64,000 bases of DNA from Bacillota bacterium (GTDB taxonomy: Bacteria; Bacillota; SHA-98; Ch115; JABLXJ01). Both the position numbers and the translations under genes were made by a program. The notes under the pieces are model-generated. The model made no database searches. It saw only the letters and a list, made by a program, of their open reading frames with translations, and was not told the origin of the DNA. Shown one piece after another: positions 9,474-28,842 of the stretch. How positions within the stretch are numbered: the first letter of the stretch is position 1; each line of letters opens with the position of its first letter. The stretch spans positions 326,538 to 390,537 of the forward strand of contig JABLXJ010000001.1 of assembly GCA_013178125.1 (NCBI GenBank), read 5' to 3'.

Positions 9474-9485
9474 GGGGTGAGGTGA

Positions 9486-10103: not shown

Positions 10104-10112
10104 CGAGGAGAG

Positions 10113-10901: not shown

Positions 10902-10932
10902 GACTGTTGGCGGTGCTTGGGGGGGTGATGGA

Positions 10933-11970: not shown

Positions 11971-11991
11971 ATTAACAAGGAGGAATGATCT

Positions 11992-12300: not shown

Positions 12301-12301
12301 C

Positions 12302-12457
12302 ATGAGCGCTTACTGGGTTAACATATTCTATTCCCTTGTTACGAGCGGAAGGAAGACCGTCAATGATGTACCTGAGAGTATAAGGCAACAGGTGATTGAT
12401 AGGCTCACGCAGGAAGGTTATGTAATGAATCCTGATGGCTCGGTGACGAAGGTCTAG
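12302..12457 (+). CDS. small phage protein (XkdX-like), 51 aa, absent from ORF track
   Basis: ATG one base after upstream stop; translation MSAYWVNIFYSLVTSGRKTVNDVPESIRQQVIDRLTQEGYVMNPDGSVTKV. Confidence 0.35.
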   Translation: MSAYWVNIFYSLVTSGRKTVNDVPESIRQQVIDRLTQEGYVMNPDGSVTKV

Positions 12458-12537
12458 TCTAAGAGTATATAGTGTAGAATGTAGAGTCTGCCTCTGGGCG
12501 GCTTTTTCATGTACTCCAAAAGGGCGGTGGTGGTAAC

Positions 12538-12771
12538 ATGGAACTCATACAGCTCCTTTCCCAATATCCTGCGGCTACGCTCGTTTTTGTGGCGTGGCCG
12601 CTTCTGTTTGTGTGGTTGCTCTGGTGGACCATGAAGGAACACGCGAAACGTGAAGAGCGGCTGATGGCGGCGAACGAGAGCTGGCGTGTCGCGTTGGAGA
12701 AGCTCGCGGAGAAGATAGACCAGCTCGGTGATAACCTTTTAGAGCGGTTGCGCGACGAGCTGAGGAGGTGA
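12538..12771 (+). CDS. putative holin / lysis-associated membrane protein
   Basis: 77 aa, one N-terminal hydrophobic helix and charged coiled-coil tail, immediately before the amidase gene. Confidence 0.45.
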   Translation: MELIQLLSQYPAATLVFVAWPLLFVWLLWWTMKEHAKREERLMAANESWRVALEKLAEKIDQLGDNLLERLRDELRR

Positions 12772-12777
12772 TGCCGT

Positions 12778-13338
12778 ATGCCGGAGATGAAAAGGCTGAT
12801 CTGCCTCGATCCAGGACACGGTGGGGTGGACCCCGGAGCTATAGGCCAGGCCGGGATTAAGGAAGCGGATATTAACCTGGCCGTAGCGATGAAGCTCAAG
12901 ACGGAGCTGGCTGAGAGAGGCATTCCCACTGTAATGACCAGGGATGACGATACGTTCGTGTCGCTCCAGGATCGCGCATCCAAGGCGAATGCTGCGAATG
13001 CTGCGGTTTTTATTTCCCTGCACTGCAATTCGGCTCAAAACCGCGAAGCGAATGGTGCCGAGGTTTACTACTGCATTGGCAGCAGGCCCGGGGAAGCCCT
13101 GGCGAACGCGATACATGCTTCCCTGATCAAGGCTACCGGCCTCGTCGATCGTGGTGTGAAGGGGACAGGCTTCTATGTCCTCCGGCATACCAAGATGCCT
13201 GCTGTCTTGGTGGAGCTCGCGTTTATTTCTAATTCGGGAGAGGAGGAGCTATTGGCAAATGAGGGATTCCAGTTGAAGGCCGCAAGGGCCATTGCCAGCG
13301 GGATAATAGATTATCTGAAAGGAGCGAGGAAAATATGA
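12778..13338 (+). CDS. N-acetylmuramoyl-L-alanine amidase (endolysin, Amidase_3-type)
   Basis: Motifs CLDPGHGG and LHCNS...EVYY; lysis cassette position. Confidence 0.85.
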   Translation: MPEMKRLICLDPGHGGVDPGAIGQAGIKEADINLAVAMKLKTELAERGIPTVMTRDDDTFVSLQDRASKANAANAAVFISLHCNSAQNREANGAEVYYCIGSRPGEALANAIHASLIKATGLVDRGVKGTGFYVLRHTKMPAVLVELAFISNSGEEELLANEGFQLKAARAIASGIIDYLKGARKI

Positions 13339-13622
13339 GTATACTGAAGGTTCTGGGTTATATCCGTATCGCATTATGCCTTGTCCTACCGTTCGCGGTA
13401 TTGGCAGAGGATACTGGCCAGCCGGGCGAAGAGAAGAAGAAGATGGTTGTAGGTCGGCTGAAGGATGAACTCGCCAGACTTGGCTTGGTTCTTCCTGAGT
13501 GGTTGAAGAAGTATGAGGAGTTTCTGCTGGGCGTAGTGGTTGATGTCGTGGTGGCGATCTTGAACCGCATGGGTTTTTTCGAGCATTCCGGGACATCCGA
13601 GCCCGACTTGAAGCCAGCGTGA
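13335..13622 (+). CDS. putative holin-like membrane protein
   Basis: 95 aa with two hydrophobic segments; start overlaps amidase stop. Confidence 0.4.
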   Translation: MSILKVLGYIRIALCLVLPFAVLAEDTGQPGEEKKKMVVGRLKDELARLGLVLPEWLKKYEEFLLGVVVDVVVAILNRMGFFEHSGTSEPDLKPA

Positions 13623-13781
13623 AACTGGACCCGTTTTCGGTCAGGGTTGAATATCATGTAGCGGCTGGCAGGCTTCCCAAAGAGAATCCGGGGGAGCTAA
13701 ATGATTCAGTAAGGGAGCAAGCGTTGAAGGACGCTATTGATCATATCCCACAGGTGCGGTTTGAACATTGATTTTTTATCG

Positions 13782-13810
13782 CCCGGCCCTCGAAAGGGCC
13801 GGGCTTTTTT
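13782..13810 (+). terminator. intrinsic terminator closing the prophage late operon
   Basis: Stem cccggccc/gggccggg with loop tcgaaa, followed by a T6 run. Confidence 0.6.
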
Positions 13811-13862
13811 GAGTATCGGGGCAGGGATGCGACTGGGACATAGACCTTTTGGTGGCGAGGTT

Positions 13863-13896
13863 AAGTTGGCATGGAGTTGGCATGGATAAGTTGGTC
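13863..13896. repeat. three direct repeats of AGTTGG(CATGG) downstream of the prophage terminator
   Basis: aagttggcatgg / agttggcatgg / ataagttggtc read directly. Confidence 0.5.
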
Positions 13897-14082
13897 AAGA
13901 GAGGGTTCCGCCACGCTATGCGCACTTACCACCCTATGGCATAACGGGGAACGGGATGGATATTGGTGCGATCAGGTAGCGGCTTAACTGACAAACCCAT
14001 CTCTGGGGTTATGCATGCTATGAAATTTTTCGTTTTAGCAGGAGTATATAAAGGTATGTCGAATATAGTAGCTACAAGTTAG

Positions 14083-14123
14083 TTTAAACGTTTATATATA
14101 ACGTTTAAATAAAGCGTTTAATT
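14083..14123. promoter_or_regulatory. LacI-type operator candidates (three AAACGTTT cores)
   Basis: tttaaacgtttatatataacgtttaaat plus aaagcgtttaatt just upstream of the LacI-family gene RBS. Confidence 0.4.
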
Positions 14124-14147
14124 AGAAAAAGTTTCCGGAGGAAACTA

Positions 14148-15164
14148 ATGGCTACAATAAAGGACGTTGCAAGGGAAGCAGGGGTATCTATAGCCACTGT
14201 TTCCCATGTGCTAAACAATACTACTTTGGTAAGCGAGAAAACTGCGCAAAAGGTACTGGCAGCGATTAAAAAGGTCAATTATCATCCAAATAGCGTCGCC
14301 CGTAGCCTGGTCACTAAGGTCACTATGACGCTGGGTATTATCATTTCTAATATCACAAATCCATTTTATCCTGAAGTGGTTCACAGCATTAGTCGGGCAG
14401 CCGCAAAGAATGGATATGATATCATTCTCACGAGTACGAACAACGACGAAGAGGGTATTGCTCAATCAGTTCGCACTTTGTGTAAGCGAAAGGTTGACGG
14501 GGTTATTATCTTGGCTAGTAAATTTGATGATAATTTAATCTCTCAACTTACCGAACAAGGCATGGAAGTCGTTGTCTATGATAGGAATATCCCTACACTT
14601 CCGGTAGATAGTGTAGAAATTGACTATGAATTTGGGATATCGCAAGCTATACAATATCTGAAGGATCTAGGTCACACCCGTATTGGGTATATAGGTGGGG
14701 CACCTGATTGGTTGACTGCTCAAAAACGTCTAATAGCATTTCAAAATGCCATGTCTAGATATGGCTTAAAAATAGATGAGCGTTTAATTGTCGCGAAAGA
14801 CTGGACATTACGAGGCGGATTTCAGGCAATGAATACTATGTTGCGGATAAAAAGCAGACCAACGGCAATAGTTGCGTGTAATGATATAGTCGCTGTAGGA
14901 GCCTTAAAGTCTATTAGAAGAAAAGGTCTAAAATGTCCTGAGGATATTTCAGTTGTAGGAATTGATGATATTGTATTGGCATCATTGATTACACCGGCTC
15001 TTACAACCATTGCCTTACCTCGAAATCAAATTGGCGAGGTTGCTACGAAAATGGTTATAAAACGGCTTAGACATAAGGGGCCTCACAGCCAGAAACCCTA
15101 CACAGTCATATTCAGACCCAATCTGGTAATCCGGGACTCGACAGGGCCCCCTTTTTTCAAGTAG
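14148..15164 (+). CDS. LacI-family transcriptional regulator
   Basis: N-terminal HTH MATIKDVAREAGVSIATVSHVLNN; sugar-binding-like C-terminal domain; RBS ggagg. Confidence 0.9.
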   Translation: MATIKDVAREAGVSIATVSHVLNNTTLVSEKTAQKVLAAIKKVNYHPNSVARSLVTKVTMTLGIIISNITNPFYPEVVHSISRAAAKNGYDIILTSTNNDEEGIAQSVRTLCKRKVDGVIILASKFDDNLISQLTEQGMEVVVYDRNIPTLPVDSVEIDYEFGISQAIQYLKDLGHTRIGYIGGAPDWLTAQKRLIAFQNAMSRYGLKIDERLIVAKDWTLRGGFQAMNTMLRIKSRPTAIVACNDIVAVGALKSIRRKGLKCPEDISVVGIDDIVLASLITPALTTIALPRNQIGEVATKMVIKRLRHKGPHSQKPYTVIFRPNLVIRDSTGPPFFK

Positions 15165-15327
15165 TGGGTTATATCTTTTCAATAGTCTTCTATAGGTCTA
15201 CAATTGACCATAGCATTGGCCCAGTATGGGATTCCGTATAAGGGGGTGGGTATATGATCTAGGGGACGCTTGATAATTGGTGAGATCTTTTGGTAACTAA
15301 GATAAATTGCAAAGGGGTGTATGGTTA

Positions 15328-16359
15328 ATGAAGGTCCGACAAGTAAATAGATATGTTATTCTTGTGTCGTTGATAGTCTGTATTTCATTTATTCTTATGG
15401 GAACCCTATCTGCTTTTGCTAAAACACCCACGATCGCCTTAGTTCCAAAATGGGAGGGCATTCCTTATTTCACTGTTGCTGCCGAAGGGGCTAAGCTAGC
15501 TGGTAAACAACTAGGGGTTAATGTAATCTACGTTGGCCCGAGCGAACCCGATGCCACTCAGCAGGTTCAAGTTATTAATAATTTGATTTTACGTGGAGTT
15601 GATGCTATAGGTATATCCGTTATGGATGCTAATGTACTAAAACCTGTCATCAAGAAGGCAAGGGAAGCTGGCATCCATGTTTTCACTTGGGATTCCGATG
15701 CCCCGGACTCTGAGCGGGAAGTCATGGTCCAACAAGTATCTCCAAAGGAACTCGGGTACACTGTAATGGATCTTCTTGCAAAAGAAATGAACTACAAGGG
15801 CAAATTCGCTATTATCACTGGCGATCTAGCTTCTAACCAGCTCAACGAATGGATGGAGTATGAAAAGGAACGCTACCAACAAAAGTACGCCAAGACAATG
15901 GAACTCGCTAGTATAAAAGCTCCTGGGGTTACTTTCGATAAGGTCTTTGATACTGTAAGCACTATGATGCGGACTATGCCCGAGATTACCGGCTATATCG
16001 GGGAGCATTCGGAAGCTGGGCCTGGAATTGCTGCCGCTGCCGAACATGTTAAGGTTTCCCCGCAAAAGGTGGTTGCGGTAGCTATCACTACTCCTGACAA
16101 CATGAGGAAGTATTTCAAGAAAGGAAACTCGGTCGTCCGCTATGGAGTTCTTTGGGATGTTAAAGCCTTAGGCTATGTGTCCGTTTGGGTAGGTAAGCAA
16201 CTGATTGAAGGAAAGCCACTTACAGATAAAGTACCAGGTATTGAGCAATTTGAGGCAATTGAGGAAGGGTACCCTAAATATATCCCTGAAAAGAAGTGGG
16301 TACTACTTGGTCCACCTTTAATATTCAATGAGAAAAATATAGATAAATATCATTTCTAA
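15328..16359 (+). CDS. ABC transporter substrate-binding protein (periplasmic-binding-protein type 1, sugar-type)
   Basis: Signal peptide then PBP1-like sequence; start placed at ATG 15328 after RBS (track start 15307). Confidence 0.8.
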   Translation: MKVRQVNRYVILVSLIVCISFILMGTLSAFAKTPTIALVPKWEGIPYFTVAAEGAKLAGKQLGVNVIYVGPSEPDATQQVQVINNLILRGVDAIGISVMDANVLKPVIKKAREAGIHVFTWDSDAPDSEREVMVQQVSPKELGYTVMDLLAKEMNYKGKFAIITGDLASNQLNEWMEYEKERYQQKYAKTMELASIKAPGVTFDKVFDTVSTMMRTMPEITGYIGEHSEAGPGIAAAAEHVKVSPQKVVAVAITTPDNMRKYFKKGNSVVRYGVLWDVKALGYVSVWVGKQLIEGKPLTDKVPGIEQFEAIEEGYPKYIPEKKWVLLGPPLIFNEKNIDKYHF

Positions 16360-16398
16360 ACTCTATTGTAAACCCCTAATTCGTCTAGGAGATAAGGT

Positions 16399-16420
16399 TA
16401 ATATATATATATATATATAT
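16399..16420. repeat. (AT)n dinucleotide microsatellite, about 11 units
   Basis: taatatatatatatatatatat read directly. Confidence 0.9.
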
Positions 16421-16427
16421 GCCACTT

Positions 16428-16450
16428 GGCTCCGGGGTAAACCCGGAGCC
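16428..16450 (+). other. perfect 9-bp stem-loop between substrate-binding and ATPase genes (no T-run)
   Basis: ggctccggg gtaaa cccggagcc. Confidence 0.5.
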
Positions 16451-16508
16451 GTCTCTGAGTATACACTCTACTGGCCTTCGCAGGCCTGATGAGGGGAGAG
16501 CCTTCTTA

Positions 16509-18002
16509 ATGGCGGAATTAATGGAATTAAAGGGTATAAGCAAGGAATTTGGAGGCGTCAAGGCCCTAGTAGATGTAGATTTTGAGCTGAGGTCAGGCGA
16601 GATTCATGCCTTAGTCGGGAAGAATGGAGCGGGTAAGAGTACGCTTGTCCAAATCCTTTCCGGGGTAATAAATCCAGATAAAGGTAAAATTTTTTATAGA
16701 GACCAAGATGTAACCTGCTGGAATAACCGGCAAAAACGACTACGGATTTCCCACGTATTTCAACATATACAATATTTTCCAGAGCTTCCTGCTGGAAAGA
16801 ATATCTTCATTGGTAGGGAAGAGGTCGATCGCTACGGTAGACTTAAGTGGGATCAAATGTATGGGAGTCTGGAAGATATTTTATCTAAATTCGGCATCGA
16901 TAAACAGATTCTTTATCGGCCGATGAGAGAGCTTTCTGTAATGGAAAGAGAAATCATCGCAATTGTAGAAGCCCTTTCCAAAAATTCAGAGATATTCATT
17001 TTTGATGAGCCTACTGCTGCGTTAGGAAAAGATGAGGCTGAGCAACTTCTATCGGTAATTCAGGACCTTAAGGCCAAAGGTGCGGCTATTGTCTATATTA
17101 GTCACCGTCTTGAAGAAATTATAGGATTTGCAGACTATGTAACGGTACTACGTGATGGTCGAAAGATCTCCACTGATTCCATGGCTTCTATAACTAAAGA
17201 GCAGATCGTACACAAAATGGTTGGTGAAAAGATAGGACACATTTATCCTCACCGAACTACCCAACATCGTGGCTCTGTTTTACTGAAGGTGAGCCAGCTA
17301 ACTAAACGTTCTGTTTTTGAAAACATTACATTTGAAATACACGAAGGGGAAATCTTAGGACTAGCTGGGCTATTAGGTGCGAAACGAACAGACATTGCTC
17401 AAGCTATATTTGGCACGATAACCTATGATTCGGGTACAGTTGAGATTGAAAGAATCTCCTTGCCTAAGCATAGTCCCGCGCTCTCCATCGAAAAAGGTCT
17501 AGTGTACTTACCTGAGAACAGGCAAGAAGACGGTTTAATCCTTAGTACAAGCATCCGAGAGAATATCACTTTGCCAATCCTTCGTCAATTCGGTGGGAAT
17601 GGTTTTTTAAACCGCATTGTAGAACGGAAGATCGTTCAGGATAGTATCGACCGTCTAGGGATTAAGGCTGAAGATATTGATACTTTAGTAAATCATTTAA
17701 GCGGTGGAAATCAACAAAAAGTCTTATTCGCTAAATGGCTCAACACCTCTCTGAAAGTGTTAATGCTTGACGAACCAACCCAGGGTATTGACGTTGAGGC
17801 GAAAGCAGAAATCCACCGCATCCTCGGCGATCTTGTTAATCATGGCATAGGAATCCTTCTTATATCTTCTGACCTGGAGGAGCTCATAGCTATGAGCGAT
17901 CGAATCATCGTCGTCCACGAAGGGCGGATAATCTCCGAATTTACAGGTAGTGAAGTGACTATCGAAAAAATCCTGCTCGCCGCTATGGGGGTGCAACAAT
18001 GA
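16509..18002 (+). CDS. ABC transporter ATP-binding protein, two fused nucleotide-binding domains
   Basis: Walker A GKNGAGKST, LSGGNQQK signature; start placed at ATG 16509 after RBS gaggggagag (track start 16419 lies in the AT repeat). Confidence 0.9.
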   Translation: MAELMELKGISKEFGGVKALVDVDFELRSGEIHALVGKNGAGKSTLVQILSGVINPDKGKIFYRDQDVTCWNNRQKRLRISHVFQHIQYFPELPAGKNIFIGREEVDRYGRLKWDQMYGSLEDILSKFGIDKQILYRPMRELSVMEREIIAIVEALSKNSEIFIFDEPTAALGKDEAEQLLSVIQDLKAKGAAIVYISHRLEEIIGFADYVTVLRDGRKISTDSMASITKEQIVHKMVGEKIGHIYPHRTTQHRGSVLLKVSQLTKRSVFENITFEIHEGEILGLAGLLGAKRTDIAQAIFGTITYDSGTVEIERISLPKHSPALSIEKGLVYLPENRQEDGLILSTSIRENITLPILRQFGGNGFLNRIVERKIVQDSIDRLGIKAEDIDTLVNHLSGGNQQKVLFAKWLNTSLKVLMLDEPTQGIDVEAKAEIHRILGDLVNHGIGILLISSDLEELIAMSDRIIVVHEGRIISEFTGSEVTIEKILLAAMGVQQ

Positions 18003-18979
18003 ATTCTTCTGGACCCGTACGCAAGACCCCCAGGTCAAATCAGTTTGGCTCAATGCTATACGAACGAGAAGTCCTTGCCCTTTTGGTAGCGATAATTATG
18101 TGGGTTGCATTTGGGTTGATAAATCCACGTTTTCTGACATGGGCAGGCATAACTGACATTATTTTTTCCTCAACAGTTATTGCAGCCGGGGCTCTTGGGA
18201 GCAGCATGGTTATTATAGCGGGCGAATGGGATCTCTCTGTCGGTTCGATGTTAGCTTTGCAGGCGACCATTATTGCGCTACTCGCTAGCTCAAATGTGGT
18301 TACCAATCTATTTGTTATGATCCTGGTTGTGATAGTAATCGGAATGGTGCTTGGTTTCATTAATGGGATTCTGGTATCGTTTGGGGGACTTTCTTCGATT
18401 ATAGTTACCATTGGTACTATGTTTGTTTACCGAGGTCTGTGCTTGATAATAGCTGGTGGACGATGGTTTACCAGTCTACCAGCGTGGTTAACTAGTGTCG
18501 GTCAGGTATCAACATTTGGTATAAGGCCTTCTCTCATCATTATCCTTGTTCTTACTGCAATATTATCTCTTTTCATGAGCCAAACAAGACTAGGGCTTTG
18601 GATTTACGCTTTAGGTGGGAATGAAAACGCACTACGTCTAAAAGGGATAAATGTACGCTGGGTAAAAGTATTAGTTTTCTGTACTACCGGGGTACTAGTT
18701 GGTGTGGCCGCATTGATTTTGGCTGGTCAGTATGGGTACGTGCAGACTGATATTGGCTATGACTACGTCATGGCCACCATTGCAGCAGCGATTGTTGGAG
18801 GTACCAGCGCCTTCGGCGGTCGAGGTCGTATAGGCGGAGCTATTATTGGAGCGCTGTTAATTGGAATCATGAAAACAGGATTGGTTGCTATAAACATTCC
18901 AGCCCAATGGTATAACGTAGTGCTCGGCATCCTGATCTTACTTTCAATGACCAGGGAAATGCTACAGAAACGTACCTGA
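17999..18979 (+). CDS. ABC transporter permease
   Basis: Polytopic membrane protein; start overlaps ATPase stop. Confidence 0.85.
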   Translation: MNSSGPVRKTPRSNQFGSMLYEREVLALLVAIIMWVAFGLINPRFLTWAGITDIIFSSTVIAAGALGSSMVIIAGEWDLSVGSMLALQATIIALLASSNVVTNLFVMILVVIVIGMVLGFINGILVSFGGLSSIIVTIGTMFVYRGLCLIIAGGRWFTSLPAWLTSVGQVSTFGIRPSLIIILVLTAILSLFMSQTRLGLWIYALGGNENALRLKGINVRWVKVLVFCTTGVLVGVAALILAGQYGYVQTDIGYDYVMATIAAAIVGGTSAFGGRGRIGGAIIGALLIGIMKTGLVAINIPAQWYNVVLGILILLSMTREMLQKRT

Positions 18980-19004
18980 GCATATGAGGAGTGGTGAATT
19001 GAGC

Positions 19005-19943
19005 ATGGTCAAAGAAGCTATGGCAGCCAAGCGTGAATCTTTACTACTCATAATCCTGGTGGCCTTGATTCTTTTATTTGGAGGGCTCTCGCCTAACTTC
19101 CTTGTTCCGTACAGCTTCACTGTAATGAGCCAGTATCTAGCGGAAATAGGGTTACTATCCTTGGCTATAACTATAGGGCTCATTAGTGGGCTTCTTGATC
19201 TGTCAATAGGTTCGATCTTCGGGCTTTCTGCTGTTTCTATTGGCTTACTGGCTAAGACCGGATTAAATATCTGGGTGTCAGCATTTCTTGGAGTTATAAT
19301 TGGCATGGTAGCTGGCGGATTGAATGGAATCCTGGCAGCCTTTACGCCCATTCCCCCATTGATTATTACTCTGTCTACTCAATTCATCTTTGCAGGGATT
19401 AGTCTAGCACTAACTCGCGGCAACCCAGTCACTGGTCTCCCTGAAAATTATTCGTTCATAGGCCAGACTCAGATTGGTCCGGTACCACTGCAACTACTAG
19501 TTTTTCTAATCGTTACGATTGCCTCTTCAATTCTTATGCAGTACATGGGGCTAGGACGCAAGATGCGCCTCATGGGGAAAAGTAACCGTGTTGCATGGTT
19601 TTCTGGTGTCAACGTCCCTATGGTAAAGATCATGGTCTATGTGTTATCCGGCTTTCTTAGCGCTTTAGCCAGTATTATTCTTACTTCAAGAGTAATGACA
19701 GCTAGGCCGGATGCTGGCCAGACTCTAGGGTGGACAATCCTGACAGTAGCTTTTTTAGGCGGCGCTTCCCTGGAAGGGGGTACTGGTACGATCCTAGGGG
19801 CATTATTCGGTGCCATGATTATTGTGATATTATCTACAGGGATCGAGGTTGTCGGTTTAGATATCGGCCAGCGGTTGTTGACTCAGGGTTTGGTTTTGCT
19901 GGTTGTAGCAGGAACAGGTAGACTTCTTAAAATCAAGGATTAG
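19005..19943 (+). CDS. ABC transporter permease (second)
   Basis: Polytopic membrane protein; ATG 19005 has an RBS (track start 18984 does not). Confidence 0.8.
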   Translation: MVKEAMAAKRESLLLIILVALILLFGGLSPNFLVPYSFTVMSQYLAEIGLLSLAITIGLISGLLDLSIGSIFGLSAVSIGLLAKTGLNIWVSAFLGVIIGMVAGGLNGILAAFTPIPPLIITLSTQFIFAGISLALTRGNPVTGLPENYSFIGQTQIGPVPLQLLVFLIVTIASSILMQYMGLGRKMRLMGKSNRVAWFSGVNVPMVKIMVYVLSGFLSALASIILTSRVMTARPDAGQTLGWTILTVAFLGGASLEGGTGTILGALFGAMIIVILSTGIEVVGLDIGQRLLTQGLVLLVVAGTGRLLKIKD

Positions 19944-19961
19944 AGTAAGGGGGAAATGAAT

Positions 19962-20702
19962 ATGAGTAGTGATTTCATCCATACGCTATCCAATATATTA
20001 AGTAATCTGGAGTTTGTTGATTTAAGTCACCGATTAGAGGAGGATATTCCAACTTTCCCAACACATTCCCATTTTTATCATTTGAAATGGGAGAATCCTG
20101 ATGATCCCGCTACGATGTTTCAATTCATGATGCATGAACATAATGGTACCCATGTCGATGCTCCAGCCCATTATCTAAGGGAAGGTGTAGGGAATAGGGA
20201 GGATGCATGGATTGATGCTATTCCGCTCCAAACTCTCATTGGCCCTTGTAAGGTTCTTCAATTAGCAGGATTCGATAACCGTAATCTCTTATCCAAGTGC
20301 CATATTGAGGACTGGGAAGCTAATCACGTTCGAATCCAGAAAGATGATATTGTACTCTTGAATTTCGGCTGGCATAAACGTTGGACTACCTCTAAGGAAA
20401 GATATCAGTTCGCTAAAGATTGGCCGGGGCTCACGAGGGACGCGGCCCTTTACCTAGCCGAAAAAGAGGTTAAGGCTGTGGGGACCGATTGCATTGGACT
20501 CGATTGTTGTGGTAGTACCGAAATACCAGCTCATGATGTGTTACTTGCTCGCAACATATTAATCATGGAGAATTTAGCAAATCTTGATTTATTACCGGAT
20601 GAAAGCTTCTTCATCGCTTTTCCGCTAAAAATTAAACAAGGTTCTGGGTCTCCTATACGGGCGGTTTCCCTTATACCCAAGACAGGGGGATCGATGACGT
20701 AG
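19962..20702 (+). CDS. cyclase-family protein (kynurenine formamidase-like metal hydrolase)
   Basis: Motif HEHNGTHVDAPAHY; RBS taagggggaa. Confidence 0.8.
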   Translation: MSSDFIHTLSNILSNLEFVDLSHRLEEDIPTFPTHSHFYHLKWENPDDPATMFQFMMHEHNGTHVDAPAHYLREGVGNREDAWIDAIPLQTLIGPCKVLQLAGFDNRNLLSKCHIEDWEANHVRIQKDDIVLLNFGWHKRWTTSKERYQFAKDWPGLTRDAALYLAEKEVKAVGTDCIGLDCCGSTEIPAHDVLLARNILIMENLANLDLLPDESFFIAFPLKIKQGSGSPIRAVSLIPKTGGSMT

Positions 20703-20750
20703 CTTCTCACCGAAAATGTAAGGATAATTAAATATAGGGAGTGGGATCAG

Positions 20751-21935
20751 GTGGTTTGTAGAAATAGTATTAGTAACGAATTCCGGCAAAGATGGGTTAA
20801 ACTGAAGGAAAAAATGATTACGAGGGGGCTAGATCTTCTCTTTATTTATTCCAATGACCGTGCTGTATTTGGTCCTGGAAATATACGGTACCTGTCAAAT
20901 TTCCCTGTACACTTTGAACACGCAGCGATCATTATGCCAAGATTCGGGGAACCCATCTTGGCAGTCGGACCGGAAACAAGGGAATATGCTGAGTTAAGTT
21001 CCGAAGTTAAAGATATACGGGTAATTAAAGAGTTCGCCATTCCCGATGAAGAATATCCTTATACCAGTATGACCTCTTTATCAGCGATCTTGGAAGAAAT
21101 CAGGTCAAACTCGGGCAACGAGGTAAGGTCAATAGGCCTCATTGGCTTAGATTTATTGCCCTGGTCCCTCTATCAGGTTCTTGAAAATACTCTTCTATCG
21201 AACCGACGGGTGGAAAACGCCGAGGACATTTTGATAGATATGAGATCGATTAAAAGTCAATATGAAATTGAAATAATTGAAGAAGGGTATGCGATTGCCG
21301 ATAAAGCAATGGAGGCCTGTGTCGAAGCCGTTCATGTCGGGACAACAGAGTTGGCTATTGCTGCGGCTGGGGAAGCAGTGATGAGAAAGCTAGGTGCCGA
21401 GGGGTATGCGATAGATACAATCGTTGCTAGTGGTAAACAAAGAACCTATCCGATTGTAGTCCGTCCTTCTGATCGTAAAATTGAGAAAGGCGATGTGGTT
21501 TTAATCACTATGGGTCCTCGATATAAGGGGTACAATCCTGCGATCGGTCGACCTGTGATCGTGGGGGATGCACCGGAAGTAATTATCGAGGCAATGCAAT
21601 TAGCATTAAAAGCTCAGCATGCCGCGGAGGCAGCCTTACGCCCCGGCGCCATCGGGTGTGACGTGGAGGGAATGGCCCGTAAAGTCTTAGCGGAGGCTGG
21701 GCTTGAGCAATACTTTGTTTATGCCGGGGTGCATAGTGTTGGGCTAGCCGAATTTGAGCCTCCGATCCTTTCCCCCAAAAGTAACCTGCAGGTGAAGGAG
21801 AATATGGTCTTGTCCATCGATATCCCACTTTTCCTTACCCCATGGGGTGGATTCCGTTACGAGGATGGATTCGTCGTTACCAGCGATGGTTGTCGACGAT
21901 TGAATCATTTCCCGCGAGAGATCATTAAAGTTTAA
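20751..21935 (+). CDS. M24-family metallopeptidase (Xaa-Pro peptidase / creatinase-like)
   Basis: Creatinase-like N-domain plus M24 pita-bread region (GVHSVGLAEFEPP, FRYEDGFVVT). Confidence 0.8.
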   Translation: MVCRNSISNEFRQRWVKLKEKMITRGLDLLFIYSNDRAVFGPGNIRYLSNFPVHFEHAAIIMPRFGEPILAVGPETREYAELSSEVKDIRVIKEFAIPDEEYPYTSMTSLSAILEEIRSNSGNEVRSIGLIGLDLLPWSLYQVLENTLLSNRRVENAEDILIDMRSIKSQYEIEIIEEGYAIADKAMEACVEAVHVGTTELAIAAAGEAVMRKLGAEGYAIDTIVASGKQRTYPIVVRPSDRKIEKGDVVLITMGPRYKGYNPAIGRPVIVGDAPEVIIEAMQLALKAQHAAEAALRPGAIGCDVEGMARKVLAEAGLEQYFVYAGVHSVGLAEFEPPILSPKSNLQVKENMVLSIDIPLFLTPWGGFRYEDGFVVTSDGCRRLNHFPREIIKV

Positions 21936-22276
21936 TCCATACAGTGAGGGACCCTTATGGTGGGCACTCCCGGCTACATGAGATGGTCTTGGCACCACAC
22001 TATACAGTCCGAACAGGGGAAGATACAGCCATTCCTACGGCTTGGAGTGCCTTCCCGCAAACCCCCGGCAGGGGAAGACGTAGACGATAACGTTGACCCT
22101 CTTGTTCTACCTACATTTCGCACCCCTCAGGGGTATGTGGGGACATTTTCTGAGGTCATATGTGAAGATGGGACGGTAGCGCCCGTGTAATAGCGTAAAA
22201 AGTAGAAGGGGCCCGGGAAAGAGGAAGGCCCCCCTTGATAGATGAGGTTTTATTAAACCTCCCGTTCGCCCCTTGT

Positions 22277-22307
22277 GCCCGGTCGGAAGGCCGGGCTTTT
22301 ATGTTTT
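22277..22307 (+). terminator. intrinsic terminator
   Basis: Stem gcccgg/ccgggc with 8-nt loop followed by ttttatgtttt. Confidence 0.5.
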
Positions 22308-22336
22308 ATCTAAATTCCAAAAGAATCTCCTCATAG

Positions 22337-22368
22337 CTATTGACATATTCAATAATTATTGATATAGT
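22337..22368 (+). promoter_or_regulatory. sigma-70-like promoter (TTGACA, 17 bp, TATAGT) with embedded palindrome TCAATAATTATTGA; copy 1
   Basis: Read directly; 30 bp nearly identical to 23511-23540. Confidence 0.5.
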
Positions 22369-22404
22369 ATAAGTGATGAAAGGAAATTGCAGGAGGGAAA
22401 CGAA

Positions 22405-23196
22405 ATGACAAACAGGGCATTCGGAATTGAAATAGAGGCTTATGGAGTGAGCCAGTTCGAGCTAGAGGACAGACTCCGGCAGGCTGGGATACAGGTAAGG
22501 GTTGAAGGGTACAACCATAGCACCAGGGAACACTGGAAAATAGTTAGCGACGGCTCAATCCAAGGCCCGGACTCGTTCGAACTAGTCAGCCCTCCACTGA
22601 GCGGAGAAGAAGGACTCAATCAGATTAGGACAGTATGCCGGGTGCTGGATGAGGTAGGCGCGAAGGTTAACAAGTCGTGTGGCTTCCATGTCCACCACTC
22701 GGCGGCAGACCTGACACCAAAGGCCCTGCAGGCATTGATCGGACTATACACTAGGTTCCAGGGCGCGCTAGACGAGATAGTAGCAAAGAGCCGCCGCGGT
22801 AATAACAATACATACTGCCGGGCCCTTAGCAATGAACTATACTACAGGGCCCTCAGGCGGGATGACTTACAGGGTATTGTATGTTGCCAGGATAGTAGGT
22901 ATTATAAACTTAACCTGCAAGCATATCTGAGGCATGGCACGATAGAGATTCGGCACCACCAGGGCACCGTGAATGCTGACAAAATAATAAACTGGATCAG
23001 GTTGACCCAGGCGATAGTTGAGGCGGCGGTGAGGTTAAACCACAGCAAGCTGAGCTTGGACAACCACACGGGCCGTCTGGATCACGACAGGTGGCACTTC
23101 TGGAACACAGTGAAAAAGGTCTTGGATGCAGGTGAATTCGAGGAGCTAAGGGCATACTACGGGCAGCGGCGCAAGGAGCTCGCCGCTGCCGCCTAG
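22405..23196 (+). CDS. glutamine-synthetase-like amidoligase (Amidoligase_2-type), putative
   Basis: N-terminal FGIEIE and C-terminal GTIEIRHHQGT motifs recalled as typical of GS-like amidoligases; RBS aggaggg 7 nt before ATG. Confidence 0.5.
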   Translation: MTNRAFGIEIEAYGVSQFELEDRLRQAGIQVRVEGYNHSTREHWKIVSDGSIQGPDSFELVSPPLSGEEGLNQIRTVCRVLDEVGAKVNKSCGFHVHHSAADLTPKALQALIGLYTRFQGALDEIVAKSRRGNNNTYCRALSNELYYRALRRDDLQGIVCCQDSRYYKLNLQAYLRHGTIEIRHHQGTVNADKIINWIRLTQAIVEAAVRLNHSKLSLDNHTGRLDHDRWHFWNTVKKVLDAGEFEELRAYYGQRRKELAAAA

Positions 23197-23206
23197 AAAG
23201 GCGGTA

Positions 23207-23446
23207 ATGACTATGAAGGTGGTTACATACGAGGGACAGGTCATAGAAGGGACTCCGGAGAAAATAGTCCAAAAGCTAGCGGATACCAGTTTTACTGATT
23301 CTGGGATGCCCGGCCCTGAATATATGCGGACGGTAGCCCGCAGGATAGCGGCCTTGCATGGCGAGGAGCAAGCAGAGGAGATAGAAGACCCGGAAGGATT
23401 CCTCCGGGTTATGGAGCGGTATGGAGTGCTGCGGATAGAAGAGTAG
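23207..23446 (+). CDS. hypothetical small acidic protein (79 aa), co-transcribed with the amidoligase
   Basis: Starts 10 bp after the amidoligase stop. Confidence 0.4.
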   Translation: MTMKVVTYEGQVIEGTPEKIVQKLADTSFTDSGMPGPEYMRTVARRIAALHGEEQAEEIEDPEGFLRVMERYGVLRIEE

Positions 23447-23510
23447 ATACCATAGGGCACTTATCGTCGATAGAATTCTGCTCAAAAAATCTAAATAAAT
23501 TCATTCTGTC

Positions 23511-23542
23511 TTATTGACATATTCAATAATAATTGATATATT
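23511..23542 (+). promoter_or_regulatory. sigma-70-like promoter (TTGACA, 17 bp, TATATT) with near-palindrome; copy 2
   Basis: ttattgacatattcaataataattgatata, 2 mismatches from copy 1. Confidence 0.5.
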
Positions 23543-23580
23543 AAAAAGGGAAAGGAGATACACCAAAGGAGGCAGTCCTA

Positions 23581-23838
23581 ATGGATAGTAAACAGAAACT
23601 TGGAATACTACAGGCCGAGATGGAGGAAGTTAAGCGGGTGATCAAGAGGGTTGAGGATGCGGCATATAGTACCGGCAACCTTGATGAGGTAGTGGGAGCG
23701 ACCGGAGACTATGGAGTAATCCTGGATGCACTGAGGGAGAAAGAAAATTCCATACGATGGTCGATAGAAGTGGTGCATAGAGAGATTAGGGAAGCCACCG
23801 AGGGTGAAGAAGATTTACTGAGCCAGTTAGTCAGATAA
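23581..23838 (+). CDS. hypothetical small coiled-coil protein (85 aa)
   Basis: RBS aaaggaggcag; follows promoter copy 2. Confidence 0.4.
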   Translation: MDSKQKLGILQAEMEEVKRVIKRVEDAAYSTGNLDEVVGATGDYGVILDALREKENSIRWSIEVVHREIREATEGEEDLLSQLVR

Positions 23839-23891
23839 AATACAGAGCCCGTCGGGAGCCTGAATCCTGGCAGGCAATAAGAGGTGGTACA

Positions 23892-24185
23892 ATGTTAATA
23901 ACATTTGGAGAGGCCGCCCGTAGGTGGAAGATAGATATTTCGACTTTGCATAGGGCGCACCAGAGAGGAGAGCTGCCTGCCCGGCAGTCTGCTGGGTCCT
24001 GGCTTTGCGAGGAGGAGGATGTCCGGGCCGTTTTTGGTGAGGAGAATCCTCCGGAGGGTTGGGTAACGATCCCTGAAGCAGTCAGACTCCTGGGCATTAC
24101 CAAGGCAGCGGTGTACTCAAAGGTGAAACGTGGAATACTGCCTTCGGTGAAAGCCCAGGGCATTTTATGGGTTCCGCGGCCATAA
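23892..24185 (+). CDS. excisionase/MerR-like HTH DNA-binding protein with two HTH_17-like halves
   Basis: Two repeats of the type ITFGEAARRWKIDISTLHR and VTIPEAVRLLGITKAAVYSKVKRG. Confidence 0.5.
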   Translation: MLITFGEAARRWKIDISTLHRAHQRGELPARQSAGSWLCEEEDVRAVFGEENPPEGWVTIPEAVRLLGITKAAVYSKVKRGILPSVKAQGILWVPRP

Positions 24186-24286
24186 AGAAGGACTTTTACG
24201 TTTCTTATCATGCCTATGAGGGATTGAAATGATATTGTGTTTGTTACAGGATTTACTATCATACTTATAAGGATTCCCTTTTTTGG

Positions 24287-24310
24287 ATCCGGTTTTAGAC
24301 CGGATTTTTC
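24287..24310 (+). terminator. intrinsic terminator
   Basis: atccggt tttag accggat followed by tttt. Confidence 0.45.
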
Positions 24311-24416
24311 GATGTATCCTATGGAAACCTTTGTATCACTTGTTGACATCGTGATCAAAACCTGATACGGTTGGAATTGAATGAAAATCCTCCTGCATGT
24401 GGGAAGGGATATTGAA

Positions 24417-25364
24417 ATGACAGCTATGCAGAAGTGGACGAAGGAGTCTGTTGTGGAGGCTATCCATGCACGGTCTAAGAAAGGGCTGGCACTAAATTAT
24501 CAAGCTGTTGTAAAGGACGATGAACCGCTTACAGGTGCCGCCAGGCGATATTTCGGCTCCTGGAATACAGCGTTACAAGCGGCTGGATTTGACCCGGCAG
24601 CGATAAAAAGGGAGGCAAGGAGTGGACTTCGCAGATCGCGCGGCTCCTGGACTAAGGAGGATGTAATCGAGGGTATTCGTAGAGCGGCGGCGGAGGGTCA
24701 AGACCTCTCGGCGCATAGGATGCAACAGTGGGACCCTTCTTTAGTGGCTACGGGCCAGCGGCTATTTGGTTCCTGGGCCGATGCACTCAAGGCCGCAGGA
24801 TACGCGCCTGACCTAATTTACAGGGCTCGTGTGTGGACGGATGATGAAATCCTCAAGCGTGTCAAGTATTTAGCCAAGTATGGCGCTGACCTGACTGACC
24901 GGACTGCATCCGGATACGACAAAGGTCTCTATGCCGCGGCCATAAAACATTTCGGGTCATGGGCTTCTGCCTTGGAACGGGCGGGAGTTCCACCTGAGCG
25001 GCGCACGGCGAAGTGGTCGAAGAATAAGGTTTTGGAGGCTATCCGTAATGGTAGGCGTGATGGCACGATTAAAGCTATAGCTCTGGATTATTTCCCTTCA
25101 TGGGCAACGGCCCTACGGAAGGCAGGTATCCCGGAAGATAAGGCACAAGAAGTCGGCAACCGTATCCGTGAACGACGGGAGGCTCTGGGTATGAGCCAGG
25201 GTGAGTTAGGCCGGTTCTTAGGGTATAGTCATAGGACCATTTCGATGCTGGAACTTGGGCAGCTCCGTGATCCGCGGGTAAGTGTGGCATTGAAGCTGGC
25301 GAAGGCACTGAAGTGTAGTGTTGAGGACATCTTCTATACTGAGGAAAAGGAAATATTATTCTAA
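24417..25364 (+). CDS. DNA-binding protein with four homing-endonuclease-associated repeats (HEAR) and C-terminal XRE HTH
   Basis: Four repeats ending FGSW..AL..AG; C-terminal HTH LGMSQGELGRFLGYSHRTISMLELG; RBS gggaaggga before ATG 24417. Confidence 0.6.
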   Translation: MTAMQKWTKESVVEAIHARSKKGLALNYQAVVKDDEPLTGAARRYFGSWNTALQAAGFDPAAIKREARSGLRRSRGSWTKEDVIEGIRRAAAEGQDLSAHRMQQWDPSLVATGQRLFGSWADALKAAGYAPDLIYRARVWTDDEILKRVKYLAKYGADLTDRTASGYDKGLYAAAIKHFGSWASALERAGVPPERRTAKWSKNKVLEAIRNGRRDGTIKAIALDYFPSWATALRKAGIPEDKAQEVGNRIRERREALGMSQGELGRFLGYSHRTISMLELGQLRDPRVSVALKLAKALKCSVEDIFYTEEKEILF

Positions 25365-25390
25365 AGTAGCCCGGTCGAAGGATCGGGTCA

Positions 25391-25816
25391 TTACTTATCC
25401 CTGAGAACCATCAGGTATGGCTCCAGGGCGGCAAGATGTACCGTGCTTGGTGTGCGTTTTCCTTTCTCCCAGGTGGCTATGGTGTGTACATCCACTCCAA
25501 TGGCCCTTGCGAATTCGACCTTCGCCAGCCCGTGGAAAAGGCGGGCTTTCCTTATGCGCTGCCCGAGCGTTTCCTCGGGCAGGGTCTCGAAACCGCCTAA
25601 ATAAGGTATTGGGACGTCAAGAGTCTGGGACAGAATCCGAAGAGTAGGCATGGAGGCCGGTTCTTTCCCGGCTTCGATCCTGCCTATTGTTGCACAGTTC
25701 AAACCGGTGATGGAAGCTAAGTCGCGGATGGTCATGCCCTTCGCTATCCTCGCCCGCCTGAGCCGCAGCCCTGGTGTGTTGCCTGGCCATTCCTGCCTTA
25801 ATACCCACGGTGGCAT
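25391..25816 (-). CDS. XRE-family transcriptional regulator with two HTH domains
   Basis: Two XRE HTH segments (GMTIRDLASITGLNCATIGRIE and LAKVEFARAIGVDVHTIATWE); start uncertain (ATG 25816 or GTG 25837). Confidence 0.6.
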   Translation of the reverse strand: MPPWVLRQEWPGNTPGLRLRRARIAKGMTIRDLASITGLNCATIGRIEAGKEPASMPTLRILSQTLDVPIPYLGGFETLPEETLGQRIRKARLFHGLAKVEFARAIGVDVHTIATWEKGKRTPSTVHLAALEPYLMVLRDK

Positions 25817-25856
25817 ATCTTTCTGTCTGGTTATCACAATTTCAAGGTTGTTGTCT

Positions 25857-26957
25857 TCACGGGCACGGGTTGGACGTTGCTATAAGAGTAAAACGAGCAG
25901 GATACCAGACGGATCCTGAGGCTCTCGATATGGTTATTACGCCATCTTCCAGGGGCTGGCGCAGGGACTCCAGGACATTCCTGCGAAACTCGGGGAGCTC
26001 GTCCAGGAAGAGCACGCCCCGGTGGGCGAGGCTTATCTCCCCCGGTCGCGGGATTTTGCCCCCGCCGATCATCCCTATGTCGGATGCGGTATGATGGGGG
26101 GCCCTGAACGGCCTCGCTGCGATCAGCCCGCTATCGGGCGAGATGAGGCCGGCTATGCTGTAGATCTTGGTGACCTGGATCGCCTCATCCCTCTCCAGCG
26201 GGGGGAGAATGGTTGGTATGCGTTTGGCGAGCATGGTCTTGCCCGATCCCGGGGGGCCTATCATAAGGAGGTTGTGCCCGCCTGCCGCGGCCACCTCGAG
26301 GGCCCGCTTGGCGTGCTGGTGGCCTTTTACATCGCTGAAGTCGACATCGAATTCGATGCTAGGCGAGGCCCCGTTGCTGCCGGCCGGGATCGGGGTGGGA
26401 GCGGAGGATGATGCGTCCAGTTCGCCGGCCAGGAAGGACAGCACTTCATTGAGGCGCCTGAAGGGATAGACCTTTATGCCTTCAACTACCGAAGCTTCCC
26501 GCGCGTTACCGGCGGGCACGATGATGCCGGGCCAGCCCTCGCGTTTTGCTACCTCAGCTATGGGGAGGATGCCTGTTGTGCCGCGGAGCTCCCCATCGAG
26601 GGAGAGCTCGCCGACGATGAGGTATTTTGAGGTGGCCTCCTCGGGGATATCGCCGCACGCCGCCACGATCCCAATTGCTATTGGAAGGTCGAAGCAGGTG
26701 CCTTCTTTTCTGATTGTTGCGGGCGCGAGGTTGACTGTTATGCGCTTTACCGGGAATTCGCGCCCCGAGTTTTTGAGGGCCGCTCTGACGCGTTCTTTGG
26801 ATTCGCGGGTTATGGTGTCGGGCAGGCCGACGATTTCGAAACAGGGGAGCCCCTGGGCGATGTCGACCTCGATCCTGACTACGTAGCCTTCTATTCCGAG
26901 GACTGCACCGCTGAAGGTCTTCGCGAGCAATGTGTCCACTCTCCTTTCCTTTCCCAT
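25857..26957 (-). CDS. comM: Mg-chelatase-like AAA+ ATPase YifB/ComM, 3'-truncated (ends right after NPCP)
   Basis: Lon-like N-domain, Walker A GPPGSGKT, Walker [11 protein letters not shown]; about 366 aa instead of about 500; stop directly after the NPCP motif. Confidence 0.7.
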
Positions 26958-26987: not shown

Positions 26988-27377
26988 TCACAGGGTGAAA
27001 GCATTGCGGATCAACTCGATGCGGGGAGGATACCCCGGCCCGGACCCATCAAAAATCACATAGACCACATCGAACCTGCAGCCTCGGGTCGCCGCGTCCG
27101 CCCTGTGCGCCGAAAGATACAACATAGCCGATCGTATAATCCTCCGGCGCTTCTCCCGCGTTATATGCTCACCTGGCTGGCCATAAGCGAAGCTCCTCCT
27201 GGTCTTCACCTCGACGAAGCACGTTACCGCCCCATCCCGGGCTATGATATCGATCTCCCCGCATGCACAACGATAATTGCGCTCGAGGATGACGTAACCA
27301 TAACTTGAAAGGTAATGCGCTGCAAGCTCCTCTCCCTGCGCACCAAGGTCTCTAGAAGATGCCGGCATAGTCTTCAA
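26988..27377 (-). CDS. yraN: YraN-family (UPF0102) endonuclease-like protein
   Basis: Motifs GEIDIIARDG, FVEVKTRR, CRFDVVYV. Confidence 0.75.
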   Translation of the reverse strand: MKTMPASSRDLGAQGEELAAHYLSSYGYVILERNYRCACGEIDIIARDGAVTCFVEVKTRRSFAYGQPGEHITREKRRRIIRSAMLYLSAHRADAATRGCRFDVVYVIFDGSGPGYPPRIELIRNAFTL

Positions 27378-27651: not shown

Positions 27652-28842
27652 GTGGGGGGACGGATCTTGGACGACGACCGCGAACGCAAGTATTGGGTCG
27701 CGCTGAATATGGTTCAGGGAATAGGGAGCGCCAGGCTTCATGCCCTGGTGACGCACCTGGGCTCGGCCGAGGCCGCTTGGCACGCCCCCTTTGAGGAACT
27801 GAGACGGGTTCCCAATATCAGGGATAGCGTTGCCTCCCGAATCGTCGAGCGCCGCAGCGAGGTCGATCCCGACCGCGAGCTGGAAAAGGCCGCCGCGCTC
27901 GAGGTCGACATCCTCACATTCAGGGATGAAGCATATCCAGGGCTCCTATCGCGAATATATGACCCACCGCCCGTCCTGTATGTCAGGGGCTCCATTGTGC
28001 CGCAGGACAGCCTGGCGGTCGCGGTGGTTGGATGCCGCAGGCCCACGTCATACGGGCTGTATGTTGCCGAGCGACTCGGCTATGAGCTGGCGAGGCGGGG
28101 TATAACGGTCGTGAGCGGCATGGCGCGTGGGATCGACTCTGCGGCTCACAGGGGGGCCCTGAAAGCCCGGGGCCGGACGATAGCCGTGCTCGGCTGCGGG
28201 GTTGACATATGCTACCCGCCGGAGAATTCCAGGCTGGTGCGGGAGATAGCCGATTCGGGCGCCGTGGTGAGTGAGTTTCCACTCGGGATGGGGCCAATCG
28301 CCCTCAACTTCCCCGCCCGCAACAGGGTTATAAGCGGGCTCTCCCTCGGGACGGTCGTGGTGGAGGCGGGGCCGAGGAGCGGGGCTCTCATAACGGCCGA
28401 TTTTGCGCTGGAGCAGGGGCGGCAGGTTTTCGCGGTGCCAGGCGACATCCGAAGGGAGACTTCGAGGGGCTCACACAGGCTCCTTAAGGAGGGAGCCACA
28501 CTGGTGGAGGGGGTGGATGATATCCTGAGCGAGCTAGGCCTCAGCCTTGAGCCTGCTGGCCTATTCGACCGGCCGGCCGTCGGTCGATCTACTGAATTTT
28601 CATCTTCTACAACATCTATTGAATCTATTGAGGCCACCGGTGAGGATGTCTTCCCCGGCGGGCTTGAGCCGGTTGCGAGGCGGCTGCTCCAGGTCCTGGG
28701 GGATGAGCCCCTAGTGGTGGACGAAATAGCTCGAAGAGCGGGTATCGATGCCTCCCTAGTGGGCGCATCGCTTATCGCGCTCGAGGTCGACGGGTGGGTG
28801 AGGGCGTTGCCGGGTAATGCTTATATGAAGTCACCAGGGTAG
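27652..28842 (+). CDS. dprA: DNA processing protein DprA (Smf)
   Basis: Rossmann-like DprA core (VVSGMARGIDSAAHRGAL, VLGCGVDICYPPEN); GTG start approximate. Confidence 0.85.
   Translation: MGGRILDDDRERKYWVALNMVQGIGSARLHALVTHLGSAEAAWHAPFEELRRVPNIRDSVASRIVERRSEVDPDRELEKAAALEVDILTFRDEAYPGLLSRIYDPPPVLYVRGSIVPQDSLAVAVVGCRRPTSYGLYVAERLGYELARRGITVVSGMARGIDSAAHRGALKARGRTIAVLGCGVDICYPPENSRLVREIADSGAVVSEFPLGMGPIALNFPARNRVISGLSLGTVVVEAGPRSGALITADFALEQGRQVFAVPGDIRRETSRGSHRLLKEGATLVEGVDDILSELGLSLEPAGLFDRPAVGRSTEFSSSTTSIESIEATGEDVFPGGLEPVARRLLQVLGDEPLVVDEIARRAGIDASLVGASLIALEVDGWVRALPGNAYMKSPG

Follow-up and report, generated by a model that had tools for sequence, protein, structure and literature searches.

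Several prophages and prophage remnants that rely on serine recombinases of the LSR class lie within competence or sporulation genes, among them Listeria A118 and phi10403S in comK and Bacillus SPbeta and skin; the interrupted genes can be restored by precise excision, and regulated excision of these elements has been shown experimentally. Conditional excision followed by re-integration is likewise known for other gene-interrupting LSR elements. Control of the direction of serine integrases is usually attributed to separate directionality factors, and serine integrases also attract practical interest as tools for genome engineering. Of the predicted site-specific LSRs, 12.4% have homologues of comM/yifB as their target (Durrant et al. 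2022, PMC10083194), and the Wolbachia sr1WO phages integrate into a magnesium chelatase gene (Bordenstein & Bordenstein 2022, PMC9203015). Both studies bear out an earlier note on the DNA considered here, which had called comM a known integration hotspot, and the interruption of comM by an LSR prophage is an ordinary, documented kind of event. In Acinetobacter baumannii, comM is disrupted by AbaR islands, which are Tn7-like transposons (PMC11441513). Mycobacteriophages of clusters G, N and P display integration-dependent immunity, with attP located in the repressor gene (Broussard 2013, reviewed in PMC9262239).

The DNA analysed, a stretch of 64,000 nucleotides from a Bacillota bacterium, termed the window, carries the 5′ fragment of a comM/yifB gene (Table 1). 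The corresponding NCBI protein, P0001 (“YifB family Mg chelatase-like AAA ATPase”, 357 aa), is 100% identical to the window ORF but has a later start. Pfam searches revealed the Lon-protease-like domain at the N-terminus (ChlI/Lon-like PF13541 at residues 29-151, E = 2.9e-46), and the sequence contains Walker A (GPPGSGKT) and Walker B (VLFLDE) motifs, in agreement with the earlier description of a yifB/comM homologue ending after NPCP. The AAA+ module, which consists of PF01078 with Walker A/B and a zinc finger (CxC...CxC) embedded in it, is incomplete: Mg_chelatase PF01078 extends over residues 206-366 and covers just profile positions 1-160 of 207, while the zinc finger is represented by a single Cys, the first of its first CxC pair (NPCP*). 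PF13335 (Mg_chelatase_C, the arginine-finger domain) was not found in the window ComM ORF by Pfam. The ORF ends in AAC CCG TGC CCG TGA, giving the protein end ...ATSNPCP*, and this stop codon (25859..25857) is created by the junction, being formed by the last two bases of the attachment core, TG, and the first phage base, A. In P0002 (519 aa, 87% identical), the nearest relative of full length, the sequence continues with ...NPCQCGFFGDPSRPCTCSPQ... (NPCQCGFFGD...) for 160 more residues. The truncation described earlier thus stands, although the shortfall relative to P0002 is about 160 residues and not the roughly 140 first estimated.

No frame 3′ of the comM stop encodes the missing part of ComM, and the sequence there is unrelated to comM; as the earlier note had stated, it encodes an XRE-type regulator, with two HTH_3/XRE domains. 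Control loci from other genomes were obtained by searching with the last 160 aa of P0002, the listed matches being distant, with intact comM and at most 57% identity, and among these matches the N- and C-terminal parts of comM were contiguous in 80/80 fetched loci. Because comM is contiguous in all of these loci among the matches listed, the short ComM, whose C-terminal part is not contiguous here, is not a natural variant. Without the second half of its zinc finger and the C-terminal domain bearing the arginine finger, the truncated protein is most likely inactive, as would be expected of a hexameric ATPase deprived of its arginine-finger region. In Legionella ComM the arginine finger, R463, is located in the distal region and an embedded zinc finger has been described (PMC11612176). 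According to published abstracts, RadA is the transformation branch-migration helicase described so far in Firmicutes, and ComM is that described for Gram-negative species, so that the altered natural transformation suggested in the earlier note is only a possible consequence here.

The missing 3′ segment, which the earlier note had proposed to seek elsewhere in the genome, was located outside the window at the far end of the insert, directly after the LSR gene and before rnhB. The top match to the C-terminal 160 residues of P0002 is P0121 (141 aa, 77% identical), which contains PF13335 (E = 1.2e-30). The DNA of this segment occupies 1543..2031 of L082, a Logan contig from run SRR6186653, where the comM frame starts with CGFFGDSSRPCSCSPQ... 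and is open for 162 codons from the attL junction to the stop. P0001 (comM 5′), P0121 (comM 3′) and P0391 (LSR) are each reported on a 435,065-bp NCBI contig, and their placement on one contig is based on this shared figure, not on coordinates. When both host flanks are joined, an open comM of 519 codons results, equal in length to P0002.

Comparison with a relative lacking the insertion, also proposed in the earlier note, revealed the empty site. In an 87%-identical relative (GCA_012839815.1, locus L088), a full-length, uninterrupted comM lies in the order dprA, yraN, comM, rnhB, ylqF-like, lepB, rplS, trmD, which agrees with the right flank of the window (yraN, dprA, DUF494, topA) and with the rnhB flank of L082. 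Against this relative, the 5′ and 3′ halves of comM have dN/dS values of 0.147 and 0.106, respectively, and yraN, dprA and rnhB values of 0.10-0.14; since the values of the two halves are similar to those of the neighbouring genes, neither half shows signs of pseudogene decay. As both halves are intact, precise excision would restore comM, provided that the prophage is able to excise. The chromosomal part also contains, far from the junction, the segment of highest GC in the window (0.664, at 51001-52000), where the AT skew is +0.24.

Table 1. Positions of prophage, junction and chromosomal features in the window
Feature	Position	Strand	Remarks
Phage late genes	17..13622	plus	Tape measure with SLT domain (cut by window start), tail, baseplate wedge, tail fibres
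Amidase_3 endolysin	12778..13338	plus	Within 17..13622, as is a small membrane ORF
Low-GC cargo block	14148..21935	plus	LacI regulator, sugar-type ABC transporter, cyclase, M24 peptidase; between endolysin and attR
Amidoligase (Amidoligase_2) gene	22387..23196	plus	Phage accessory region
Small HTH_17 protein	23892..24185	plus	Matches PHROG recombination directionality factor / excisionase families
Protein with three HNH_repeat units and C-terminal XRE HTH	24381..25364	plus	Convergent with dual-HTH gene
Hairpin	25369..25388		Between HNH_repeat-XRE gene and dual-HTH gene
Dual-HTH gene, 2 x HTH_3/XRE	25391..25837	minus	In-frame C-terminal part of recombinase ORF in reconstructed attP
Phage-derived attR arm AAGACAACAACCTTGAAATT	25838..25857	minus	Inverted-repeat partner of GGTGTTGTCT at attL
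5′ fragment of comM/yifB	25857..26957	minus	366 codons from first ATG; Lon-like domain and AAA+ core through Walker B, NPCP
attR common core TGCCCGTG, 8 bp	25858..25865	minus (comM-sense reading)	Same as attL
yraN/UPF0102, chromosomal flank	26988..27377	minus
dprA, chromosomal flank	27652..28842	plus	Followed by DUF494, topA; order as in empty-site relative

The two ends of the insert share an identical core, TGCCCGTG, which at attL is located at 1537..1544 of L082; the repeat marking attL and attR that the earlier note had suggested looking for is therefore this 8-bp sequence. On the comM-sense strand, attR in the window reads ...TCCAACCCG-TGCCCGTG-AAGACAACAACCTTGAAATTGTG... and attL in L082 reads ...CCAATGGTGTTGTCTGCACGGA-TGCCCGTG-CGGGTTCTTCGGGGAC.... 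The joined host flanks give attB, AACCCG-TGCCCGTG-CGGGTT, within the reconstructed stretch ...TCCAACCCGTGCCCGTGCGGGTTCTTC..., and restore the comM frame, while the joined phage flanks give attP, ...GTCTGCACGGATGCCCGTGAAGACAACAACC..., whose arms, GGTGTTGTCT ... AGACAACAACC, are imperfect inverted repeats. The phage arm of attR encodes, in the free-phage form, the conserved linker motif R-E/A-D/N-N-N-L. The crossover must lie within the 8-bp core. Dyad symmetry was considered as a guide to the crossover dinucleotide and rejected: the attP arms centre on the first two core bases, TG, and the attB palindrome centres mid-core, and because the two centres differ the crossover is placed no more finely than the core. 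A second, independent assembly (Logan contig L001) spans the attR junction, and Logan L082 carries attL. The position at 25.85 kb, suspected earlier of being an insertion or rearrangement junction, is an insertion junction, with the attR core at this point and phage genes to its left. The core shared by attL and attR, together with the restoration by flank joining of an attB that is present uninterrupted in the relative, is as expected of an LSR-mediated integrative element.

These data are best explained, with high confidence, by the integration of a temperate phage into comM/yifB through conservative site-specific recombination catalysed by its own LSR. The recombinase would have joined attP to the comM DNA coding for the NPCPCG motif, with conservative cutting and rejoining within the 8-bp core and neither duplication nor loss of sequence. 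On this model, the last 162 comM codons lie beyond window position 1, next to rnhB, together with the LSR gene and the left junction. The LSR gene occupies 2..1609 of L082 and is 100% identical to P0391 (555 aa), with the att core within its last 25 codons. Excision would require both the LSR and a directionality factor.

The window carries at least 25.9 kb of prophage together with the right junction, attR. Related prophages and phages measure 44-48 kb, and the whole prophage is estimated at 50-60 kb, with P0391 and P0121 predicted some 45-60 kb away from P0001 on the comM strand; genes for head, packaging, replication and lysogeny, the last predicted to be of ImmR/ImmA type, as well as the LSR gene, would lie to the left of window position 1. 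Both structural and lysis genes are present in the insert (tape measure, baseplate, tail fibres, Amidase_3), as expected of an LSR element of phage type. Between two baseplate genes, a 295-aa ORF (5034-5921) displays a weak LAGLIDADG_3 match and a GC dip to 0.46, and may represent a free-standing homing endonuclease.

The 8-kb low-GC transporter block at 14148-21935 is an unusually large metabolic cargo for a phage. Its ABC transporter comprises a binding protein, an ATPase and two permeases, and GC is 0.39-0.45 (about 0.43) over 14-21 kb versus 0.52-0.56 in the phage genes. Since the spacing between the endolysin and recombinase genes is just ~1.5 kb in the related phage contig L090, the window prophage carries roughly 12 kb of extra cargo. 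The fall in GC, the metabolic content and the short distance from the endolysin to the LSR::HTH gene in L090 would also be compatible with a composite insert containing more than one mobile element, in which 14148..25857, or the low-GC segment 14148..21935, is a separate and later island. However, no second recombinase, transposase, or additional att-like or flanking repeat was found in 13300..26000, and the dual-HTH gene adjacent to attR belongs in relatives to the same module as the LSR, so that the outer boundary is that of the phage. A composite origin is thus possible but rather unlikely.

The accessory region to the left of attR contains several putative regulatory elements. The small HTH_17 protein is a candidate directionality factor by family name only, and the HNH_repeat-XRE protein at 24381-25364 may be the prophage repressor. 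The HNH_repeat units of the latter, annotated as “homing endonuclease associated”, double as a 35-nt DNA repeat family. A 35-nt direct repeat, with copies 91% identical, is located at 22338-22372 and 23512-23546. Each copy reads like a sigma-70 promoter close to consensus, in which the hexamers TTGACA and TATAGT/TATATT are spaced by 17 nt and flank the palindrome TCAATAATTATTGA. The amidoligase gene is preceded by one copy, an 85-aa ORF and the HTH_17 gene by the other. The two copies look like putative operators for one repressor.

The integrated phage might also constitute a reversible switch of the active-lysogeny type, whose non-lytic, conditional excision restores comM and is followed by re-integration. 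Such behaviour would accord with the intactness and neighbour-like dN/dS of both comM halves, with the intact LSR gene (P0391) accompanied by an RDF-like HTH_17 gene, and with the precise and conservative design of the insertion. A recent insertion, however, explains the intact comM halves equally well, and the apparently complete late-gene set suits an ordinary inducible prophage, which makes active lysogeny improbable. A chimeric join at the comM/phage junction, by assembly or binning, would be conceivable in that the source is a MAG and the Logan assembly of run SRR6186653 breaks up within the element; it is nonetheless very hard to reconcile with the agreement of the window and L001 assemblies across attR, with attL and attR sequences that fit each other to the base and restore the 519-codon ORF, and with the recurrence of the same architecture in complete genomes, for example that of Moorella thermoacetica (CP136417.1). 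Finally, a naturally short ComM, a nonsense or frameshift pseudogene, or a Tn7-like (AbaR-type) transposon insertion, which could be proposed because databases contain other truncated ComM entries and AbaR islands are the best-known disruptors of comM (PMC11441513), is refuted by the intact 3′ half found elsewhere, the unrelated sequence after the stop, the contiguous comM loci (80/80 among the matches listed), the empty site and the junctions, the recombinase being an LSR and Tns-like genes being absent from the 25.9 kb of insert within the window.

Integration by the phage's own LSR has a consequence for the recombinase gene itself. In the attP reconstructed from window 25391-25865 and L082 1-1544, the LSR frame (...HYTFSNGVVCTDAR|... 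on the LSR side) stays open across the core and right arm and enters the dual-HTH gene, an in-frame continuation that has a chance of roughly one in four. Such an ORF does exist in relatives present in the attP form: a single ORF of 703 aa in IMG/VR contigs L089-L092 comprises Resolvase, Recombinase, Zn_ribbon_recom and two HTH_3 domains, with the LSR part 74% and the HTH part 55% identical to the window element; fusion ORFs are located, for instance, at 3859-5970 of L090 and at 3962-6049 of L098. Among cultured phages, Harrison and Paisley of Paenibacillus larvae encode gp44, a 695-aa “integrase” that matches 97% of the L090 fusion query at 53.5% identity. In total, 27 protein clusters of 664-722 aa display both the LSR and the HTH domain sets. 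None of the fusion clusters with contig data (0/26) is found on a contig >48.2 kb, while LSR-only relatives of about 520-600 aa occur on contigs >50 kb in 32/92 cases, complete chromosomes included (Fisher p = 1e-4). Confinement of the long form to short contigs is expected if the long protein is the free-phage form and the short one the prophage form.

An alignment of 29 fusions reveals that the linker retains T-x-x-R-(A/E)-(E/D/N)-N-(N/I)-x-(L/F)-D, a motif specified by the attP arm and followed by a stretch of variable length that contains no conserved Met and is always in frame. Because the linker is in frame and no Met is conserved across the 29 fusions, the alignment argues for production of the fusion by real read-through translation, not by a separate HTH start. 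As a general rule, a start of the dual-HTH gene of its own at the Met of “...KDMPPW” is rejected on the same grounds, this Met not being conserved in the 29 fusions. Since the LSR ORF runs across attP, integration splits the recombinase from its HTH tail. The catalytic, recombinase and zinc-ribbon domains of the LSR stay whole after this split and only the dual-HTH module is detached; the prophage LSR ends in ...RRSGAI and the fusion in ...MVLRDK. The fusion is not universal, as a 64%-identical LSR (L094) stops shortly after the linker motif and the LSR of Acetoanaerobium phage ANDSL2_ph1 likewise ends there. At the sequence level, a recombinase gene that spans attP is a solid observation. No account of LSR::HTH proteins, or of attP within the integrase gene, was found for serine integrases in the literature searched, an incomplete collection, and the novelty of the arrangement is probable.

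Sampling of comM loci revealed that the NPCPCG site is split in several unrelated lineages, including Flavipsychrobacter and Halonatronum saccharophilum, the latter by an LSR 25% identical to that of the window prophage. In a Verrucomicrobiota MAG (L087 2367-6519), a detached second copy of the comM 3′ part lies 2 kb downstream of a full-length comM, which suggests that this element brings its own replacement comM 3′ end and keeps the gene intact after insertion. The complete genome of Moorella thermoacetica (CP136417.1) carries a 72%-identical LSR that is convergent with the comM 5′ fragment, in the opposite orientation to the window. Opposite-orientation elements at the same comM site were observed at L154 4001-6662 (the Moorella locus), L083 6001-8683 (Halonatronum) and L117 2420-3396. 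In this arrangement the LSR gene converges with the comM 5′ fragment and the HTH gene lies beside the antisense 3′ fragment. The quasi-palindromic AACCCG-N8-CGGGTT target may allow both orientations.

In the window, 21 nt separate the comM stop from the start of the dual-HTH gene, which is in the +1 frame. Because no promoter-like or terminator-like site was found in these 21 nt, the gene is probably co-transcribed with the comM fragment. A metagenome search for HTH loci, conducted with a 5-sequence HTH alignment, and the related loci reveal three placements: after a sense comM 5′ fragment, as in the window (L113), fused in frame to ComM(1-366) (P0303), and adjoining an antisense comM 3′ fragment (9 metagenome loci). 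Read-through from the comM promoter into the HTH gene was considered as the general purpose of the arrangement and rejected: in relatives with the insert the other way round the HTH gene lies against antisense comM, and capture of a host promoter cannot be a general purpose because these members of the family have the reverse orientation. At a further 11 metagenome loci (L108, L114, L119, L121, L122, L128-L130, L133, L134, L142), the HTH gene and the RADNNL... arm are present with neither comM nor LSR adjoining; such loci may represent rearranged elements or attachment sites of a secondary kind.

On one reading, the HTH module would act within the free-phage integrase, for example at accessory sites or in auto-repression, and be deliberately removed on integration. 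On another, the detached HTH protein would be an active regulator in the lysogen, and the two readings are non-exclusive. Taken further, and only tentatively, the locus may represent a family of serine integrases, so far undescribed, that are encoded by a gene extending across its own attP, so that the enzyme rewrites its own product according to integration state, as a possible sensor or latch. The free phage would produce an integrase of ~690 aa, composed of the LSR and a C-terminal double helix-turn-helix module. Integration would cut the linker. At one prophage end this would leave an LSR of ~550 aa whose short tail comes from the host, and at the other the dual-HTH gene by itself, placed in the window genome immediately after the comM promoter and 5′ fragment. 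Such an in-built sensor or latch could serve the direction of recombination or immunity.

The exact att sites are thus defined for one more comM-targeting serine integrase, and the split comM supports the idea that mobile elements preferentially disable helpers of recombination and competence. If true, control of direction would follow a different principle in this family, in which integration itself strips the integrase of a DNA-binding domain. The LSR::HTH arrangement is available in the cultured Paenibacillus phage Harrison, and the integrated form in Moorella thermoacetica CP136417.1.

Among known systems, the LSR elements of Durrant et al. (2022, PMC10083194) resemble the window prophage in recombinase class, target gene family, insertion within a CDS, short core and location of the LSR next to att. 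They differ in that the evidence there is statistical, and the 400-650-aa filter applied to LSRs would drop the ~690-aa LSR::HTH form. Wolbachia phage WO of the sr1WO group (PMC9203015) is likewise an LSR prophage in a magnesium chelatase (yifB-like) gene with gene fragments at both flanks, and single-domain HTH_XRE regulators are a hallmark of the group; in contrast with the present locus, the host is an alphaproteobacterial endosymbiont and no split recombinase gene was reported. The A118/phi10403S and SPbeta/skin elements occupy target genes other than that of the window prophage, whose excision, unlike theirs, is only putative.

The AbaR islands (PMC11441513) are similar in being mobile elements that break comM, and the block on transformation-mediated removal of the element proposed for them could apply here. 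They are nevertheless Tn7-like transposons, with another mechanism and another site, while the present host is a Firmicute and the element an LSR phage; TnsABC(D/E)-type genes were not found in the 25.9-kb part of the insert that the window covers, and the junctions are of LSR type. With the mycobacteriophages (review PMC9262239), the window element shares an attP inside the CDS of a DNA-binding regulator, a product altered by integration, and a new stop supplied by host DNA next to the core. Those phages employ a tyrosine integrase, a tRNA attB, an attP in the repressor gene and an ssrA-like tag that is removed on integration. In contrast, the window element has a serine recombinase, a protein-coding attB and no ...LAA-like protein ends, and it is the LSR gene itself that is fused to the HTH module, with attP in the linker. 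A recombination site inside the integrase ORF, which is split on integration, is also displayed by the archaeal SSV-type “suicidal” integrases (PMC7253208). These are archaeal tyrosine recombinases and the integrase is destroyed, whereas here the catalytic part remains whole and the dual-HTH module alone is detached.
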